Sequence record: LC739534.1
Origin: Escherichia phage phiWec181
DNA length: 64,000 bases
Direction: 5' to 3' (one strand)
The notes under the pieces were generated by a model. That model searched no databases. It was not told the origin of the DNA and saw only the letters and a list, made by a program, of their open reading frames with translations. Positions 45,550 to 56,866 of the stretch are shown in pieces; position 1 is the first letter of the stretch; every line of letters starts with the position of its first letter. The position numbers and the translations under genes were made by a program.

Positions 45550-46658
45550 CAAGTCCATTTTTGAAAGCGGCAACTGGTGGTCAAAAGAAATCTGAAACGA
45601 GTGTACTGACTGCTACTACAGATGCAAGCAAGTCCGTGTTCGCTCCGAGTGTCCTGGATGCAAGTCCAGTGTATGCTCCAGCAGCGCCAAAAGCTGTGCC
45701 TACCTTGCCAACAATGTCTCGTAAAGAGATTGAAGAAGTGGGTGCAGAAGCAGGTTTAACTCTCCGCACGCTGAATGCCGAAGTGTTAAAGCACCAACGT
45801 AGCAATCAAGGCGATGAAATGAGCCAACGCCTTACCGCGCTGATTAAACAAGCCAAACAGCTTGATCCTGCTTCTATCAAGCAGAGCAAAGGTGTAGGCA
45901 AACTTATCAAGAAACTGATGGGTATGAAGGAAGATCTGTTCGGGGAATTCGATAATGTGAACAACCGTATCGAAGAACTCGTTAAGAATCTTCAGATGGA
46001 TATTCGTAAAGAAGAAGATTCTCTGGTGTACCTGGAGAAGCTGCACCAGGCGATCGGACAGTACGCCGCAAGCCTGAATCGTGATATGGAATTACTCACA
46101 GCAGCTTATGAGCAAGAACTGGCTAACTTTGAAGCTACGCCAGAAGATGACGTAGAAGCCCGTCAACGCGTCCGTGACACGCTTGATCTTCTGGAGATAC
46201 GTATTGCTGACTTGAAGGCATTACGCTTGCTGTGCGTGCAAATGGGGCCGCGTGTATTGGGTATGCAGAAAGTATCTGCCAGCCTCATGCGTTCTGCTCG
46301 TAATATTGTGAACAATGTGATTCCTGCTTACTCGGCAAACTTCTCGATGTATATTGAAAGTCTGCGCCAGAAGAAAGCAGCAGAAACACAGAACAACGTT
46401 CTGGACGAGTTCAACCTGGCAATCAAACTGGGTAGCGATCTTGCCACACAGAACCAGATCGAAGCAGCAGCACTGGCTAACCGCCAAGTGTTGGATATCG
46501 AAACTCTGCGTCACGATCAGGAGAACTTGGTTAAGATGTTGGAAGAAACTAACCGCATCAATACGGAAGCCCGTGCTGCCCGTGTTGATTACATCAATGA
46601 AGTTCAATCTCTCGAAGATGGGATGGTTGACGCTGTTAAGAAGGGGTTGGGTAAATGA
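45546..46658 (+). CDS. coiled-coil protein (370 aa), possibly TelA-like
   Basis: Long helical, heptad-rich translation; TelA guess rests on size and Ter neighbourhood only. Confidence 0.6.
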   Translation: MTSPFLKAATGGQKKSETSVLTATTDASKSVFAPSVLDASPVYAPAAPKAVPTLPTMSRKEIEEVGAEAGLTLRTLNAEVLKHQRSNQGDEMSQRLTALIKQAKQLDPASIKQSKGVGKLIKKLMGMKEDLFGEFDNVNNRIEELVKNLQMDIRKEEDSLVYLEKLHQAIGQYAASLNRDMELLTAAYEQELANFEATPEDDVEARQRVRDTLDLLEIRIADLKALRLLCVQMGPRVLGMQKVSASLMRSARNIVNNVIPAYSANFSMYIESLRQKKAAETQNNVLDEFNLAIKLGSDLATQNQIEAAALANRQVLDIETLRHDQENLVKMLEETNRINTEARAARVDYINEVQSLEDGMVDAVKKGLGK

Positions 46659-47762: not shown

Positions 47763-48563
47763 ATGTCCAATAAAATTAGCCTGAAGAAACGCCAAGACAC
47801 CCTGACCATTTCACTGAAGAAAAAGAAAATTGTCAACGAAGATCAAAAGATCGTTCTGCGTGTTGCAAGCGCACTGGATATCTCCGGCAGCATGTCCAGC
47901 CTGTATCGTAACGGTACTGTAAGTGAGTTTGTTGGTAAGCTGCTTCCGTTTGGTATGCTGTTCGATGATAACGCGCAGATCGATATGTGGGCTTTCAACA
48001 ATAGCTCTCGTGAAATCACTCCAGCAACTGCTGATGTGTATGATGATTACGTTGGTAAATGCATTAATGGTCGTGTAACAGTCCAGGGTGGCACAAGCTA
48101 TGCACCTGTTATGCAGGATATTTACGATTCCTACTTCGGTAGCACCACTAAATATGAAACTGTAGAAACCCCTGTAACCAAAGAAGTTCCTAAGAAAGGT
48201 TTCTTCAACCGTTTACTGGGTAAAACCGAAACTGTAGAAGCTATTGTAGAAAAAACTGTAGCCGTTGCTGTGCCTGGTGTAGACGTTACTCCGGCAGTTG
48301 TGTTCTTCCAGACAGATGGAGAGAACGATGATCCGAGCCGTGTACTCTCCGTACTGGAAAAGAACAAGGGTAAACCTATTTACTGGTTCATGGTGGGTGT
48401 TGGTAGTGCTCGTTTCTCTTTCCTGAAAGATTTGGCTGAAGCTTACGACAACGTAGCATTCATTGGTCTGAACGATCTTTCCTTGACAGACGAGCAGCTT
48501 TACGATAAACTCTTGTCTGAAGAGTTCGGTGAGTGGGTTGAAAAGGTTGGTGCTAAGAAATGA
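47763..48563 (+). CDS. vWA-domain protein with TerD-like N-terminal leader (266 aa)
   Basis: MIDAS-like DISGSM; GGTSYAPV; VVFFQTDGEND; N-terminus KISLKK...ISLKKK like the TerD gene. Confidence 0.65.
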   Translation: MSNKISLKKRQDTLTISLKKKKIVNEDQKIVLRVASALDISGSMSSLYRNGTVSEFVGKLLPFGMLFDDNAQIDMWAFNNSSREITPATADVYDDYVGKCINGRVTVQGGTSYAPVMQDIYDSYFGSTTKYETVETPVTKEVPKKGFFNRLLGKTETVEAIVEKTVAVAVPGVDVTPAVVFFQTDGENDDPSRVLSVLEKNKGKPIYWFMVGVGSARFSFLKDLAEAYDNVAFIGLNDLSLTDEQLYDKLLSEEFGEWVEKVGAKK

Positions 48564-48802
48564 TCGACACGCTGATCTCTCAAACGGTGTTGCAAGTGAT
48601 GCGTGAGAGAGAAGCTTTCATCATGAAGGGTCTTAAAGATTATTTTGGGACTCTTTCTTTGGAAGAACTCAAACTACGCGTTGAGATCCATGCGTATCCT
48701 TCTTATGAAGAATGGATTGACAAAGCAAATAAAGCTGTTATAATGCGTATCAACAAACCAGAAATCACGACAGGAGGACAAGATGTTAAATTTCGCCATT
48801 AA
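48560..48802 (+). CDS. hypothetical protein (80 aa)
   Basis: ATGA overlap. Confidence 0.5.
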   Translation: MIDTLISQTVLQVMREREAFIMKGLKDYFGTLSLEELKLRVEIHAYPSYEEWIDKANKAVIMRINKPEITTGGQDVKFRH

Positions 48803-49064
48803 GAAAGATAGCAAACCAAAGATTCAGACTTGTCGCATTGCAAATCTTACACATGGTGATTTGTTTGTTCTGAAAAGTGCCTACGACGAAGACGGTCTTG
48901 ATCCAGAAGCAGTCGTCGTTTATATGGTGTTGCGGCGAGATGAAGACACCAAGCACCCATACAATGCGGTAGAGATGAATTACAATGCAATGTTGTGCTC
49001 AATACACTATACGGCAGAGTTGGTGCAGGTAGAGTTAACAGTTAACGAAATTAAACTTAAATAA
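48783..49064 (+). CDS. hypothetical protein (93 aa), paralog of 47489-47761
   Basis: RBS CAGGAGGA. Confidence 0.55.
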   Translation: MLNFAIKKDSKPKIQTCRIANLTHGDLFVLKSAYDEDGLDPEAVVVYMVLRRDEDTKHPYNAVEMNYNAMLCSIHYTAELVQVELTVNEIKLK

Positions 49065-49079
49065 TAGAGGAGACACATA

Positions 49080-49682
49080 ATGAGCGATAAAATTTCCCTG
49101 AAAAAAGGTTCCACCGAGAAGATTTCCCTGAAGAAAGTTGCTCCGGCACTGAAAGAACTGCGTCTGGAGTTCTCCTGGAAATCAAACTCTAAACTGGATC
49201 TGGATGTAAGCGCACTTGTATGCCGACACAACGCCTCTGGCAACCCTGAAATGCTGTCTGCACGTCATCTGGTTTGTTATGCTAACAAGTTTGATCCAGA
49301 ACGTTCTGTATTCGCAGGTGATGATGTTCGTGACGGTACTGGTCAAATGGAACAAATCGATGTAACCTTGGCTAAGATCTCCGATAAAGCCGAAGAGATT
49401 GCTTTTGTCCTAACTATTGATGATGAAACGGGTCAGAAACGTCTGGGTCACGCTACTGAAGGTATGCTGAAGATCTTTGATGCCGAGCGTAACGTTGAGA
49501 TCCTGGACTTCGACTTCTTGGCTCCTGAAGTGGCTGGTAATACCATCTGCCACGTAGCTTCCCTGGTTCGTGAAGACGGTGAATGGAAACTGAAAGCTTA
49601 CGGTGTTGGTAAAGCAGGTATGGATATCTGTGATGTGGTTATGGCCTTCGGTGGTCAGAAAGAATGGTACGATTGCCCGTAA
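49080..49682 (+). CDS. TerD-domain protein (200 aa)
   Basis: Translation aligns by eye to E. coli TerD: ISLKKG, DLDVSAL, GDDVRDGTG, IAFVLTIDD, REDGEWKLKAYGVG. Confidence 0.8.
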   Translation: MSDKISLKKGSTEKISLKKVAPALKELRLEFSWKSNSKLDLDVSALVCRHNASGNPEMLSARHLVCYANKFDPERSVFAGDDVRDGTGQMEQIDVTLAKISDKAEEIAFVLTIDDETGQKRLGHATEGMLKIFDAERNVEILDFDFLAPEVAGNTICHVASLVREDGEWKLKAYGVGKAGMDICDVVMAFGGQKEWYDCP

Positions 49683-49779
49683 GATTTAACTGAAATGTTG
49701 TTGGGGGAGAAATCCCCCATTGCAAAAACGCCTCTCATGTGTTATACTGGTAGTTCATTCACCCAAAAGGAGGCAAAAT

Positions 49780-50301
49780 TTGCTGATAAAAAACTTTGTA
49801 ACAGTTGCGTTACTATCCTTAACTGCTTTTACATTTACACCTGTCACGGCAACCGCCGAAGCTGCAAACGTAAAGACTGCTAAAGTAGTTCACAAATGTG
49901 CAAAGCAAGATACTAAAGAAAATCTCTTGGCTTGTGCAATTTACGCTGAAAGTCGTAATCAGGGTAAACGTGGGATGTATGCTGTAGGTAATGTAGTATT
50001 GAACAGGAAAGGTGATGATTACTTCCCTGATAATATTAAAGATATTCTCTTCCAACGAGGACAATTCTCTTACAGGAAGAAGTTTAACGTTACCGAAGCA
50101 GAGCGATGGAAAGAAGCTAAAGCTATCGCAAAACGACTTATATACCTGGATACACACTTCCCTACACTTAGAGAAGCCCAGGACATGACAAAAGGTGCGA
50201 CATTTTTTAAGAAAGTAAAAACCCGTGCACACTGGACAAAAGATATGGTCTTAGTGTATCGTTATAAAGAACATCAGTTCTACCTACCGACAAGGAGCTA
50301 A
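49780..50301 (+). CDS. SleB/CwlJ-like cell-wall hydrolase with signal peptide (~173 aa)
   Basis: LLACAIYAESRNQG...AVGNVVLNR motif; TTG start 49780 after AAAGGAGG gives a signal peptide, whereas ATG 49720 has no RBS. Confidence 0.65.
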   Translation: MLIKNFVTVALLSLTAFTFTPVTATAEAANVKTAKVVHKCAKQDTKENLLACAIYAESRNQGKRGMYAVGNVVLNRKGDDYFPDNIKDILFQRGQFSYRKKFNVTEAERWKEAKAIAKRLIYLDTHFPTLREAQDMTKGATFFKKVKTRAHWTKDMVLVYRYKEHQFYLPTRS

Positions 50302-50302
50302 T

Positions 50303-50587
50303 ATGCGAGAAGATAATACTGTTGTTGTTGCGAGCTATCTCGTTATCGGTTTAACCGAAGAAGATGTGTACTACATTCGTAAAGGTTTGGAAGCTTACGC
50401 TACCCTCTTCATGGAAGACGAAAGCGATGTTGATAAATATTCCGTGGAGTTGATCAACGACAGTATTTATCCTTGCATAGCTCTTAAAGTAGATGCTGTT
50501 CTGTGGGAGCGTTTTGCAAGAAGTCACGATGCTATTGAATCTTCAATGGTTATGACACAAAACAACATTTTGGGGGTGATTCACTAA
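50303..50587 (+). CDS. hypothetical acidic protein (94 aa)
   Basis: RBS AAGGAG. Confidence 0.55.
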   Translation: MREDNTVVVASYLVIGLTEEDVYYIRKGLEAYATLFMEDESDVDKYSVELINDSIYPCIALKVDAVLWERFARSHDAIESSMVMTQNNILGVIH

Positions 50588-50817
50588 TGGCAGATATCAT
50601 TGAGGTAAACTTCCGTACTCGGAAGAAAGTAGAGAAATATACAATATTGAAAAGTGTTTGCGTTGTTTGTTTCAATAGTGTAATCTACGATTCAAGAAAG
50701 GGCGAAGACGGTAATGAGCCGTATATCGAACTGTCAAAGGGCAACGGTAGTTGCATTTGTAAAGCTTGTGCTGTTCAGATTAAGGGGGTTGTTGATGAAA
50801 ACGAATGGGATAAATAA
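50587..50817 (+). CDS. small zinc-ribbon protein (76 aa)
   Basis: CVVC...CICKAC Cys pairs. Confidence 0.5.
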   Translation: MADIIEVNFRTRKKVEKYTILKSVCVVCFNSVIYDSRKGEDGNEPYIELSKGNGSCICKACAVQIKGVVDENEWDK

Positions 50818-50989
50818 TACAGGGGAACTTTCTCTTGAGAACGTAACAAACGACAAACTGATTAAAATGCGAGATGTAGCTTTGGATCATCTCCAAGACT
50901 CCTTCAAGGAATATATGGAAGCACGGGATCGTGTGCTTGAGATTCGTCAAGCAATGGTTAAACGCGGAATGGTGGTGGATTCTAAATAA
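50795..50989 (+). CDS. hypothetical protein (64 aa)
   Basis: ATG 50795 with AAGGGGG RBS (ORF-track 50714 start judged over-extended). Confidence 0.4.
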   Translation: MKTNGINNTGELSLENVTNDKLIKMRDVALDHLQDSFKEYMEARDRVLEIRQAMVKRGMVVDSK

Positions 50990-50998
50990 GGGGTCAGT

Positions 50999-51562
50999 AT
51001 GATTTATTATATTACCCCCTATCTAAGTGGAGATATCGGCAAAGCAATTAACGATGCTATTGCCGTTCTTCACGAAGATAGTTGGGTCTGTTTACGTGAT
51101 ATCGATACCATGTTCTTACTGCCAGACCAACCTTCTATGTTGGAAGATTTGGTAGCAACCAATCCACCGTTTGATGTGATCGGTGCGTCTTGTAATCGTT
51201 TAGGTAGTGGTTATCAACTTCTCGGTGGAAAGATTGATGATGATCCTAACATTCTGAACCATATTTCTCATGCCAAAGTTGCTCGTGATTACTATGGTGA
51301 TGAAATTGAAGAAGTCCCACAAGGCACTCCCTTAGCAGGTTTCTTTCTATTGTTCAGGAAATCATTATGGAAGGAGATCCCTTTTGAAGAACGTACCATC
51401 CAGTTCGATATAATCTTCTCAAACACTTTACATGAACGAGGAAAAAGGTTAGGATTGATGCGTGGGATGTATCTCTTCCATATTTACCGTTTAGGTCAAA
51501 AAGATCCTCAACGGGCAATATCACACCTTATGCATTGTCATGATCACCGGAAAACTATTTAG
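50999..51562 (+). CDS. glycosyltransferase-like protein (187 aa)
   Basis: DxD-like CLRDIDTMF; tandem with three other glycosyltransferases. Confidence 0.45.
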   Translation: MIYYITPYLSGDIGKAINDAIAVLHEDSWVCLRDIDTMFLLPDQPSMLEDLVATNPPFDVIGASCNRLGSGYQLLGGKIDDDPNILNHISHAKVARDYYGDEIEEVPQGTPLAGFFLLFRKSLWKEIPFEERTIQFDIIFSNTLHERGKRLGLMRGMYLFHIYRLGQKDPQRAISHLMHCHDHRKTI

Positions 51563-51570
51563 GGGGAAAG

Positions 51571-52254
51571 ATGGAAAATATTAAAATTGGGGTTGGCGTT
51601 ATCACTGTAGGTGTTCGTCCACTTAAAGATTACATGGTTGCACCTGGTGTAGACTTCAAAGTGTTTCACGATCCCGATCGTAAAGGTGTAGCTTATGCTC
51701 GCAACCAATTAATGAAACAGTTCTACGATGAAGGTTTTGACTACTGGTTCATTTTTGACGATGATTGCTATCCGGTTAAACGTGGCTGGGAAGAATACTT
51801 CGTTAACCAGGCTGTCGAGAATGGTTGGGACTTCTTCGGTATGCCAGAATACTTCAAAGATACTGTGATAGGTTGTTCTGGAGAAGTAGTCTTCTGGGAA
51901 TTGGCTATGTGTCAGTTTGCAATGTATTCTCGTGCAACTGTTGAGACGATGGGTTATTTCCGTCCTTATACACACGGATATGGTTTCGAAGATGCAGAAT
52001 GGACTAATCGTCTGAAAGCTTCAGGTTTGAATAAAGGACTCCAGGGCGTACCTTGTCCGATGCGCATTATGGCGTACATTCACCCCGACGATGTTTTCGG
52101 TGATAACCCTTTACCTTTTGCTAATCTGACAAAAGAAGAGAAAGAATCAGCAATCGGGATCAATTGGGAAGAATACAAACTGTCTTTGGAGGATATTAAT
52201 AATGGCAAAACACACATCTCTTTTGAAGAGGCTGAAGGATATGGCGTTAAATAA
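51571..52254 (+). CDS. GT-A (family 2-like) glycosyltransferase (227 aa)
   Basis: FIFDDDCYP DxD motif. Confidence 0.55.
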   Translation: MENIKIGVGVITVGVRPLKDYMVAPGVDFKVFHDPDRKGVAYARNQLMKQFYDEGFDYWFIFDDDCYPVKRGWEEYFVNQAVENGWDFFGMPEYFKDTVIGCSGEVVFWELAMCQFAMYSRATVETMGYFRPYTHGYGFEDAEWTNRLKASGLNKGLQGVPCPMRIMAYIHPDDVFGDNPLPFANLTKEEKESAIGINWEEYKLSLEDINNGKTHISFEEAEGYGVK

Positions 52255-53188
52255 GAAACCAACCCTACTGTGTGACAACAAATTCAACAGTGGTTGTGAT
52301 TACCATCGCATTGTCATGCCATTTTCTAACACAGAGATCAAGCCACGTACTGATGTACTGGTCTTTAACCGCATCTTCTCGAAGGGTGCTGATGAAGTAG
52401 CCAAACTTAAGCGCCAAGGTGTTAAGATTGTTGTAGATTTGGATGATTTCTATCAATTGAATCCAGAACACTACCTGGCGCATCTGTACGCGCCAAACAC
52501 CCGCACAATCGTGGAAATGGTTAAAATAGCAGATATTGTCATTGTCACAACCGAATACCTGGCGTACAAAGTTCGTCACTTAAACTCTAACGTTGTTGTG
52601 ATCCGAAATGCTCTACCGTTTGATGATGGTCAATTCACTCTCTCGAATGATCGTACTTCGGGTACGCCTATCATTTGGGCTGGAGGTGCGAGTCATGAAC
52701 CGGATTTACGTTTGCTTTCAAACACTTTTGATGATAGTTTATTGTCTATCGCAGGGTATGAAGCGAGCAGCACAGTGACAGGGCAAGAGTGGGTTAAGAT
52801 CCGCCGTAGTTTGCCTAATGCGCAGTATAAACCTGCTGTAGATTCTTTGAATCATTATATGTCTGCATACGATGGTCATGCTATGGCTGTAGCTCCGTTA
52901 GTAGATAACGACTTCAACCATTGCAAGAGCAACCTGAAAGTATTAGAAGCTGGTGCTAAAGGCATTCCAATCGTTTGTTCTAAGGTATTACCTTACTACA
53001 ACCCGATCGATGCCCGTGCAGTAACCTTCGCAGATAGCAAAGCAGAGTGGCACTATGAAGTTGTAAAACTACTTCGTAATCCAAACTACCGCGAAGATCG
53101 TGGACTGTTCTTGGCTGAACATGTTCGTACTCACTACAACTTGAAGGATGCAAACGAATTGCGTCGTCAAGTGATCGAAAGTCTGTAG
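52241..53188 (+). CDS. GT-B glycosyltransferase (315 aa), paralog of next gene
   Basis: C-terminal KSNLKVLEAGAKGIPIVCS resembles GT1/GT4 nucleotide-sugar-binding motif; shared CDYHR N-terminus. Confidence 0.6.
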   Translation: MALNKKPTLLCDNKFNSGCDYHRIVMPFSNTEIKPRTDVLVFNRIFSKGADEVAKLKRQGVKIVVDLDDFYQLNPEHYLAHLYAPNTRTIVEMVKIADIVIVTTEYLAYKVRHLNSNVVVIRNALPFDDGQFTLSNDRTSGTPIIWAGGASHEPDLRLLSNTFDDSLLSIAGYEASSTVTGQEWVKIRRSLPNAQYKPAVDSLNHYMSAYDGHAMAVAPLVDNDFNHCKSNLKVLEAGAKGIPIVCSKVLPYYNPIDARAVTFADSKAEWHYEVVKLLRNPNYREDRGLFLAEHVRTHYNLKDANELRRQVIESL

Positions 53189-53194
53189 GTGTTT

Positions 53195-54139
53195 ATGGGA
53201 CAAATTATTCTTGACAATCGTGGTGGAAAAGAATATAGTGTCTGTGATTATCACCGAGTAATGCTGCCTTACACAAGGCAGTTCTCGGCCCAACCGTCAC
53301 AGAACGTATATGTCTTTAACGGTGTCCCTACGAAAGGGAAACAAGGCTTCATAGCCCTTAAGAGCATGGGCTTTAAGATGGTAATGGATTTGGATGACTC
53401 TTTAAACATTCCCCAAGGCCATATGCTGGAAGACATTTTTGATGCAGGTATTCGAGAAGACTTGCAATGGTTCCTCGAACGCAGTGATCTTGTAACGACA
53501 ACAACCCCTGCTCTCCAGGTGGAATTGTCCCAGTACAATCCTAACGTGCATATTATCCCAAATGGTTTACCGTTTGACGAGGATCAGTTTACGTTAACTC
53601 GTGATCGCTACTCCAAGTCCCCTGTAGTTTGGGCTGGAAGTGAAACACACAAGCAAGACCTGGCTCTACTACCGAACTTCGGGAGTGACTTAACGATTTG
53701 CGGATTCCGCAGAGATAGTGAAGTGTTAAGTAGTCAGCAATGGACCGATATACGTGAAAAGGTGGCTCCAAGCTGCAAATATGAGGCTGTTAGACCATAT
53801 GAGAGCTATATGGAATCTTACGACGGTCATCAGATAATGCTTGCACCTCTAACAGATAACATGTTTAATAACGCTAAGAGTAACCTGAAGATTCTGGAAG
53901 CAGGTGCCAAGGGTTTACCTTTAGTGTGTTCTCCCCGTGAAAACTACTTCACCGAAGAGTTTAAAGATTTGTTGTTCTTTGCAGAAACAAAAAGCGAGTG
54001 GGAAGATATTGTTAATTACCTGATCCAGTGTCCTGATGTGGGTATTGAAAAGGGATTAGCTTTAGCTAAGTATGTTCGTAAGCATTACCATATTGATGTG
54101 CTGAATGAACGCCGTAGATTATTATTTGAGGAGTTATAA
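53195..54139 (+). CDS. GT-B glycosyltransferase (314 aa), paralog of previous gene
   Basis: KSNLKILEAGAKGLPLVCS; CDYHRVMLPY. Confidence 0.6.
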   Translation: MGQIILDNRGGKEYSVCDYHRVMLPYTRQFSAQPSQNVYVFNGVPTKGKQGFIALKSMGFKMVMDLDDSLNIPQGHMLEDIFDAGIREDLQWFLERSDLVTTTTPALQVELSQYNPNVHIIPNGLPFDEDQFTLTRDRYSKSPVVWAGSETHKQDLALLPNFGSDLTICGFRRDSEVLSSQQWTDIREKVAPSCKYEAVRPYESYMESYDGHQIMLAPLTDNMFNNAKSNLKILEAGAKGLPLVCSPRENYFTEEFKDLLFFAETKSEWEDIVNYLIQCPDVGIEKGLALAKYVRKHYHIDVLNERRRLLFEEL

Positions 54140-54417
54140 TGCTGAATACTTTTGATTTTGAATACACTACGAAAAGTGGTTTTAATGTTGTGGTGGAGGT
54201 TGACTATTACTACGAAGAGCCTGATCCACACTCACGGGAAAGTGATTGGGATTACCACGGCGGGTTACTGATCGACGGTATCCGTTTCTATGCGGGTCTG
54301 GAACAGATTAATGCGGAAGACATTAACGTCACCGTAACAGAAATCGCATACCAATTCAAAAAACATATGGAGGCATTAGAAGCCGAGTACATGATGGAAA
54401 CTAACGAATCATTTTAA
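54139..54417 (+). CDS. hypothetical acidic protein (92 aa)
   Basis: ATG overlapping previous stop. Confidence 0.5.
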   Translation: MLNTFDFEYTTKSGFNVVVEVDYYYEEPDPHSRESDWDYHGGLLIDGIRFYAGLEQINAEDINVTVTEIAYQFKKHMEALEAEYMMETNESF

Positions 54418-56838: not shown

Positions 56839-56866
56839 AAGGGGCGCAAGCCCCTCTTGACTTTTG
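56839..56866 (+). terminator. candidate terminator/processing hairpin
   Basis: AGGGGC-GCAA-GCCCCT hairpin followed by CTTGACTTTTGATTG. Confidence 0.45.

Follow-up and report, generated by a model that had tools for sequence, protein, structure and literature searches.

The presence of a gene for a SleB-like cell-wall hydrolase among the replication genes of Escherichia phage phiWec181 raises the question of whether its product is the endolysin of this phage or an enzyme with some other task. Our analysis concerns a window of 64,000 nucleotides from sequence record LC739534.1, and the features of the locus are collected in Table 1. The explanation that we favour, and that taken as a whole seems to us fairly probable, is that the gene encodes an accessory muralytic enzyme, started from TTG in the early block and exported to the periplasm, with a T4-type lysozyme as the main endolysin.

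Table 1. Features of the SleB-like locus of phiWec181 (window coordinates).
Feature	Position	Strand	Basis or remarks
G+C-rich hairpin UGGGGGA-GAAA-UCCCCCA	49702..49719	+	between TerD gene and promoter-like site
sigma70-like promoter (candidate)	49720..49748	+	-35 TTGCAA 49720-49725; 17-nt spacer; -10 TATACT 49743-49748
Shine-Dalgarno AAAGGAGG	49766..49773	+	read from sequence; six bases 5' of TTG 49780
SleB-like ORF	49780-50301	+	read from sequence; frame and coordinates as in the first-pass annotation
Start codon TTG	49780..49782	+	sequence, conservation, GenBank annotation
Predicted Sec/SPase I signal peptide, residues 1-26	49780..49857	+	n/h/c anatomy, -3/-1 rule
Alternative signal-peptide end, cleavage after residue 28	to 49863	+	AEA/AN
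Mature enzyme (predicted), ~147 aa	49858..50298	+	short linker, then single SleB-fold catalytic domain
Cys40 and Cys52 codons, putative disulfide pair	49897-49899; 49933-49935	+	conservation, covariation
Glu57 codon, putative catalytic glutamate	49948..49950	+	motif A-I-Y-A-E-S-R
Pfam Hydrolase_2 (PF07486), residues 61-168	49960..50283	+	profile match
Stop codon TAA	50299..50301	+	read from sequence

The gene product is a 173-aa precursor. Its surroundings (window positions 49000-51000) match Escherichia phage phiWec179 (LC739533.1) and phiWec186 at 100% identity; the figure falls to 97% with phiWec188, phiWec190 and 'Pseudomonas phage PsgM04F' and to ~78% with many members of Phapecoctavirus and Justusliebigvirus (subfamily Stephanstirmvirinae). 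In the GenBank entry of phiWec179, whose positions convert to window positions by subtraction of 74325, the same CDS with the same TTG start appears as BDU12260.1, a 'hypothetical protein'; GenBank gives an equivalent start for the PsgM04F, ESCO13, Schickermooser and alia homologues, which are labelled either 'endolysin' or 'putative cell wall hydrolase'. The downstream gene begins with an ATG at 50303 and is thus tightly packed against the SleB-like gene. Two further reading frames at the locus, one of 137 aa on the minus strand (49819-50232) and one of 62 aa starting at ATG 49695, have no Pfam match, and we have taken both as shadow ORFs. The 5' part of the SleB-like gene is unusually conserved; a structured RNA was considered there and rejected, the fold z-score being -0.91 and an Rfam match lacking.

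A word-indexed protein search yielded close relatives only, and the diverse set employed below comes from an exhaustive HMMER search that gave 3494 representatives at E ≤ 0.001, of which 102 diverse members were aligned. A single-protein scan of 185,579 species-representative bacterial genomes brought up nothing closely related to the phage protein, and the SleB-like clade is therefore phage-specific.

That translation begins at the TTG, as the first-pass annotation had proposed, agrees with both the GenBank start and the intergenic alignment, in which the AGGAGG and the TTG are invariant in 5/5 relatives from two genera. Four relatives (PsgM04F, ESCO13, Schickermooser and alia) have an in-frame stop 4-18 codons 5' of the TTG, with no in-frame ATG, GTG or TTG in between; no start other than the TTG would therefore preserve the conserved N-terminus. 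We have rejected the upstream start at 49720, which had been read as an ATG: the codon is an in-frame TTG that forms part of TTGCAA, the -35 hexamer in a promoter-like site, it is absent or stop-blocked in the same four relatives, and its sole possible Shine-Dalgarno is buried in a hairpin stem. The nearest true ATG (49695) is in a different frame and heads the 62-aa shadow ORF. Downstream, the first in-frame ATG is that of Met66, which follows the putative catalytic glutamate, so that a later start would yield a dead protein. As for the company that this start codon keeps, the 94 annotated CDS in the first 50 kb of PsgM04F comprise 84 ATG, 6 GTG and 4 TTG starts, so that TTG is rare as a start in this type of genome; of these four, the SleB-like gene alone has a strong Shine-Dalgarno, the other three calls being 34-59-aa ORFs without any. 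The start codons of the homologues vary from group to group: TTG in the Stephanstirmvirinae, GTG in the Vequintavirus JES2013 and ATG in CR8 and BF23.

The promoter-like site has 9/12 matches in a consensus scan plus a TG at 49740-49741, just 5' of the -10 hexamer, although in this AT-rich region consensus matches of this kind occur at chance frequency (41 observed versus 40 expected in 20 kb). Both TTGCAA and TGTGTTAyAmT are kept in 5/5 relatives belonging to two genera, so that the hexamers, the TG and their spacing persist where the spacer sequence and the neighbouring bases have diverged. A leader of about 24 nt separates the site from the gene. Host sigma70 RNA polymerase thus probably transcribes the SleB-like gene from a conserved promoter of its own, and a promoter of the sigma70 type would suggest early or middle expression. 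The hairpin that precedes the site has a centroid fold of -13.6 kcal/mol (z = -2.64 versus shuffles) and a G5/C5 stem that is kept in 5/5 relatives; it is without a T-run and may be a weak terminator or an insulator.

The Hydrolase_2 domain claimed in the first-pass annotation is present: with E = 5.7e-17 and 62.6 bits, above the cutoff of 27, the Pfam match covers profile positions 2-100 of 100, and no second Pfam domain was found in the protein. An AlphaFold2 model built from the 102-sequence alignment has a mean pLDDT of 92.3, with residues 1-37 forming the predicted signal peptide and an unstructured linker; the mature protein has a computed mass of ~17 kDa and a pI of 9.85. The only significant PDB matches found by Foldseek were 4FET and 4F55 (probability 1.00, target-normalised TM-score 0.72-0.78), the catalytic domain of SleB from Bacillus anthracis and from B. 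cereus, of which 4FET was deposited as a 'germination-specific lytic transglycosylase'. The earlier description of the protein as 'amidase-type' consequently finds no support, its structural matches being exclusively to SleB catalytic domains, that is, to lytic transglycosylases. Both Glu57 and Arg76 are invariant in 102/102 homologues, and Glu57 aligns with the glutamate of YGESR in 4F55 and 4FET. For Glu57 as the putative catalytic residue of the phage protein we rely on published work on the equivalent glutamates (PMC12331253, PMC11148199); Li et al. (2012) reportedly dealt with that of SleB.

With the Bacillus SleB/CwlJ spore cortex-lytic enzymes (4F55, 4FET) the phage protein shares the catalytic fold and the Y-x-E-S/A-R glutamate motif, but only about 21-24% identity. 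A true SleB orthologue can be set aside: the score against the spore_SleB equivalog (NCBIfam TIGR02869) is 42.2 bits, far from its cutoff of 236.5, and the N-terminal peptidoglycan-binding domain of the true SleB architecture is absent. Bacillus SleB requires muramic-delta-lactam, which E. coli peptidoglycan lacks, and the substrate specificity of the phage enzyme must therefore differ; its host has no spore cortex, so that muramic-delta-lactam peptidoglycan cannot be the substrate. A review groups the SleB domain with the lytic transglycosylases (PMC6403190), and the catalytic glutamate of SleB is essential to lytic transglycosylase activity (PMC12331253); several phage papers nonetheless carry on the older amidase label (including PMC7344957). 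There are also SleB-like domains that act on Gram-negative peptidoglycan, in the SleB-fold T6SS effector T6EC3, whose toxicity in the E. coli periplasm requires the intact glutamate (PMC11148199), and in SleB of Zymomonas mobilis; unlike the phage protein, however, these are bacterial proteins, delivered by the T6SS or engaged in housekeeping remodelling. Judging from the model and from these analogies, the phage protein is most likely a lytic transglycosylase that uses Glu57.

The N-terminus of the precursor resembles a Sec signal peptide of the cleavable kind; in silico, the Sec-type signal noted in the first-pass annotation has the expected n/h/c anatomy. A basic n-region (MLIK) is followed by a 14-residue h-region (FVTVALLSLTAFTF) and Pro21, and small residues occupy positions -3 and -1 of two candidate cleavage sites, ATA/EA after residue 26 and AEA/AN after residue 28. 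In close relatives the -1 and -3 residues remain small, whereas position -2 may be T, K, Q, I, A or Y, a pattern that fits a signal peptidase I site. More widely, a hydrophobic 12-mer begins within the first 25 residues in 95/102 of the diverse homologues. Textbook signal peptides are predicted for the homologues of JES2013 (MKIKIFAIILSAFLSLPVVA, cleaved before AP), BF23 (MKAALLLVAALTFSFSSQA, before SH) and CR8 (...SFASVPALA, before KD); typical ones with an A-x-A ending are present in the rV5-like, T5-like and Certrevirus homologues. An N-terminal signal peptide is thus a feature that the phiWec181 protein would share with the Vequintavirinae members rV5, CR3/CR8, CB7_83 and PVP-SE1 and with the T5-like BF23 sleB and AKFV33 ORF81. 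For the homologue of phage CB7 (CB7_83), a signal peptide has been reported, together with toxicity on expression in E. coli (PMC7344957); this conflicts with a Phapecoctavirus paper in which no signal peptides were reported (PMC10698182). We also considered a bacterial lipoprotein and rejected it, as there is no lipobox L-x-x-C and the first cysteine (residue 40, in V-H-K-C) lies well past the hydrophobic segment.

The cysteines, too, are suggestive of life outside the cytoplasm. Cys40 and Cys52 are both invariant in a 13-sequence clade, and across the 102 homologues they covary with a Fisher p = 3e-13, a value that overstates the independence of the sequences on account of their kinship. Most other homologues have an alternative pair at positions 49/87, which also covaries and is mutually exclusive with 40/52; in all, the number of cysteines beyond query position 30 is exactly two in 73/102 homologues. 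Such covarying pairs resemble the disulfides of an extracytoplasmic protein.

With respect to its genomic context, the SleB-like gene sits in the early/replication block and adjoins TerD, just as the first-pass annotation had it. The TerD gene (49080-49682; Pfam TerD, E = 1.8e-29) lies upstream, with a vWA-TerF-like gene; downstream, as annotated in the syntenic PsgM04F, come three small genes, four glycosyltransferase genes, a primase/helicase and a DNA polymerase. The gene is not part of a lysis cassette, its neighbours being TerD, small soluble proteins and glycosyltransferases, and no membrane protein gene adjoins it in the window. This location had been viewed as an unusual arrangement for an endolysin, a view that comparison does not sustain: homologues bearing signal peptides are found away from the lysis genes in the Stephanstirmvirinae, the Vequintavirinae, the T5-like phages and Pseudomonas Nankokuvirus. 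In rV5-like, T5-like and Pseudomonas phages the homologues reside, as in the window, in early or replication regions.

The proteins called 'SleB' or 'endolysin' in Phapecoctavirus, Justusliebigvirus, the Vequintavirinae and the T5-like phages belong to the same family and are of the same size, with 35-100% identity. There is no essential difference between these homologues and the gene in the window, except that start codons and neighbours differ, the neighbour being TerD here, rIIA in JES2013 and a protein with two TMDs in CR8. A second 'endolysin' in the replication module has, moreover, already been described (PMC12210895, PMC10793346, PMC7344957, PMC11180984). Two lytic proteins are reported for Phapecoctavirus and rV5-like phages (PMC10793346, PMC12210895), and Phapecoctavirus iGC_PHA_EC001 encodes both PF00959 and PF07486 (PMC10793346). 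The T5-like phages have a lysozyme (or M15 peptidase) and a holin plus a distant SleB gene (PMC3326045, PMC11180984), and Certrevirus CB7 follows the same two-enzyme pattern (PMC7344957). The gene, its TTG start, the 'cell wall hydrolase/endolysin' label and the two-enzyme arrangement are therefore already known, and with the signal peptide of a homologue already reported, the gene call adds nothing new.

What, then, lyses the host? A tblastn search with T4 lysozyme detected a 167-aa protein, annotated 'hypothetical', with 49% identity over 158 residues and a Pfam Phage_lysozyme match; the identical T4-e-type lysozyme is encoded in phiWec179 at LC739533.1 45980-46483, outside the window. Its N-terminus (MAKKVVDEFDMLAVDEGLKL) is without a hydrophobic segment or signal sequence. 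In addition to the T4-type lysozyme there is an Rz-like i-spanin gene, which adjoins terL elsewhere in the genome; no holin was identified in the genome. The 'hol-like chemotaxis protein' of PsgM04F has no hydrophobic segment by eye, and a simple lipobox search near the Rz-like gene gave no o-spanin. Probably the signal-less T4-type lysozyme is the main endolysin, dependent on a holin and working with the Rz-like spanin. As the same genome encodes this lysozyme, the SleB-like protein is probably not the main endolysin; with its conserved, signal-peptide-like N-terminus and its position outside any lysis cassette, it would also be unlike a canonical holin-dependent cytoplasmic endolysin.

The SleB-like protein might nevertheless be a true endolysin of the signal-peptide type, comparable to Lys44 of fOg44 or to the SLT of Campylobacter Fletchervirus. 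It would then be exported early by Sec, stay inactive in the energised envelope and be activated when the holin collapses the membrane potential, with the T4-type lysozyme in a secondary role. Although we regard this as unlikely, several observations speak for it. [quoted passage not shown] In the window, however, no membrane protein gene adjoins the SleB-like gene, whose place is among early and replication genes, downstream of a promoter of the sigma70 type. The T4-e-type lysozyme of the same genome is, furthermore, related to a proven endolysin, that of T4, and the T5-like phages retain a SleB homologue besides a separately annotated lysozyme and holin. The comparison with Lys44 and the Fletchervirus SLT is itself instructive: their export is Sec-dependent and holin-independent and their genes have no adjoining holin (PMC7692668), which is what we predict here, but they have another catalytic domain and are the endolysins of their phages, whereas phiWec181 encodes a T4-type lysozyme as well.

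An uncleaved SAR domain, as in P1 Lyz or R21, would keep the enzyme tethered and inactive in the inner membrane until depolarisation sets it free. The composition of the N-terminus is compatible with this (a basic end followed by a 22-residue uncharged segment with 11/22 Thr, Ala or Ser), and the Cys40-Cys52 pair, which adjoins the catalytic helix, recalls the disulfide regulation of SAR endolysins. The conserved proline at -6, together with the small -3/-1 and variable -2 residues, nevertheless indicates a signal peptidase I site; the T5-like, rV5-like and CR8 homologues carry short classical signal peptides ending in SQA, VVA and ALA; and in the model about 20 linker residues separate the hydrophobic segment from the folded domain. 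An SAR enzyme seems to us improbable on these grounds. Finally, it is scarcely credible that the protein is a virion-associated lysin serving DNA entry, or else a remnant that is neither an enzyme nor muralytic: some polyvalent phage proteins delivered with the virion do contain Hydrolase_2 domains (PMC5512222), but virions are assembled in the cytoplasm, and a cleavable export signal is unsuited to packaging there; the gene is located outside the structural module; the PA5oct homologue gp368 was not detected by virion mass spectrometry; and the invariance of Glu57, Arg76 and other motif residues argues against a dead remnant.

We return, therefore, to an accessory periplasmic enzyme, for which the course of events may be pictured as follows. 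The precursor would be translated from the TTG behind its strong Shine-Dalgarno, within the early/replication block of this Phapecoctavirus, and exported by Sec, signal peptidase I removing about 26 residues. The basic mature protein would fold in the periplasm, where a disulfide probably joins Cys40 to Cys52, and its single SleB-type domain would cut glycan strands, most likely as a Glu57-dependent lytic transglycosylase. Having no wall-binding domain, and acting independently of the holin, the enzyme could remodel or pre-weaken the sacculus during infection, release muropeptides or assist lysis; muropeptide release has been suggested for PAK_P3 gp151. An exported wall-cutting enzyme would be dangerous before the progeny are assembled, since CB7_83 and T6EC3 are toxic, as is Z. 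mobilis SleB on overexpression, which impairs growth. With a start codon that is weak and conserved, TTG in this gene and GTG in Vequintavirus, such a toxic enzyme is most likely held at a low dose, and we infer that dose limitation is the best explanation for the conjunction of a strong Shine-Dalgarno with a conserved weak start.

In terms of annotation, the 'endolysin' or 'amidase' label supplied by the pipelines would have to be corrected: as far as sequence and structural model can tell, the protein combines a SleB fold with a predicted export signal, would probably act as a lytic transglycosylase and exists beside a T4-type lysozyme. The SleB-like enzyme is found in many phages of E. coli, Salmonella, Klebsiella and Pseudomonas that are proposed for therapy. 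Tentatively, and as a possibility in which we have limited confidence, the SleB-fold enzymes could form a distinct class of phage proteins, 'periplasmic auxiliary muralytic enzymes', characterized by early transcription by the host RNA polymerase, holin-independent Sec export, a low dose ensured by non-ATG starts and action prior to lysis, and present in at least four unrelated virulent lineages. If this is true, such auxiliary enzymes would act before lysis; they could, for example, thin or remodel the sacculus, release anhydromuropeptides, as has been proposed for PAK_P3 gp151, or set the pace at which the cell bursts once the holin fires.

The main endolysin of the phage is likely the signal-less T4-e-type lysozyme encoded at 45980-46483 of LC739533.1 (phiWec179, 100% identical to the window around the SleB-like gene); its gene is labelled only 'hypothetical protein' in the records of both phiWec179 and the syntenic relative PsgM04F. 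Adjoining this lysozyme gene, elsewhere in the genome, are genes of the dTDP-rhamnose pathway. The SleB-like gene has different neighbours in other genera. In Certrevirus (Cronobacter phage CR8, L012:2411-3129) its 3' end is overlapped by a gene for a 62-aa, two-TMD membrane protein (phrog_10205), an arrangement that resembles an endolysin-holin pair, and in the Vequintavirus JES2013 (L004) rIIA directly abuts it; the window contains neither of these two neighbours.

Over the first ~35 codons of the SleB-like gene (49780-49884; signal peptide and linker), third positions are far better kept than in the remainder: 30/35 against 62/130 in the comparison with ESCO13, and 30/35 against 72/130 with alia, both relatives from the Stephanstirmvirinae. 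This pattern suggests that the mRNA itself is under constraint or that recombination has left a boundary here. When folded as RNA, the conserved 5' part gave no significant structure (z = -0.91), and it had no match in Rfam. Farther along, the alignment of 102 Hydrolase_2 homologues (A1) contains two covarying and mutually exclusive cysteine pairs, 40/52 (codons within 49897-49935) in the clade of the SleB-like protein and 49/87 in most other homologues, which would imply alternative disulfides within one common fold.

Features around the SleB-like gene and the T4-type lysozyme gene (window positions unless stated)
Feature	Position	Remark
vWA-TerF-like protein	47763-48563	
Hairpin	48675-48696	followed by consensus promoter
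Promoter	48717-48744	perfect consensus TTGACA-16-TATAAT with upstream TG
TerD	49080-49682	
Four consecutive glycosyltransferase genes	50999-54200 (end approximate)	directly downstream; per PsgM04F and ESCO13 annotation
Second G+C-rich hairpin	56839-56865	AGGGGCGCAAGCCCCT; CTTGAC immediately after
T4-e-type lysozyme, signal-less	LC739533.1 45980-46483 (= L013:4001-4504)	outside window; shares 49% identity with T4 lysozyme; matches Pfam Phage_lysozyme

The hairpin and promoter at 48675-48744 lie inside the end of the ORF 48560-48802, shortly upstream of the gene at 48783. The hairpin abutting the -35 at 49702-49725 is repeated in layout at 56839-56865, and the two may represent a recurring terminator/promoter module. 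A Ter-like cluster (47763-49682) is present in this virulent phage; in PsgM04F an additional 'tellurite resistance protein' is annotated upstream of it.

'Pseudomonas phage PsgM04F' (OR584014.1; loci L002, L008-L010) has 97% identity to the window's E. coli Phapecoctavirus over a 2-kb query, and its isolation host on record is P. coronafaciens pv. garcae. Either the phage is polyvalent or its host assignment is questionable. Finally, the four glycosyltransferase genes, taken with those of the dTDP-rhamnose pathway, suggest a glycan or DNA modification directed by the phage.
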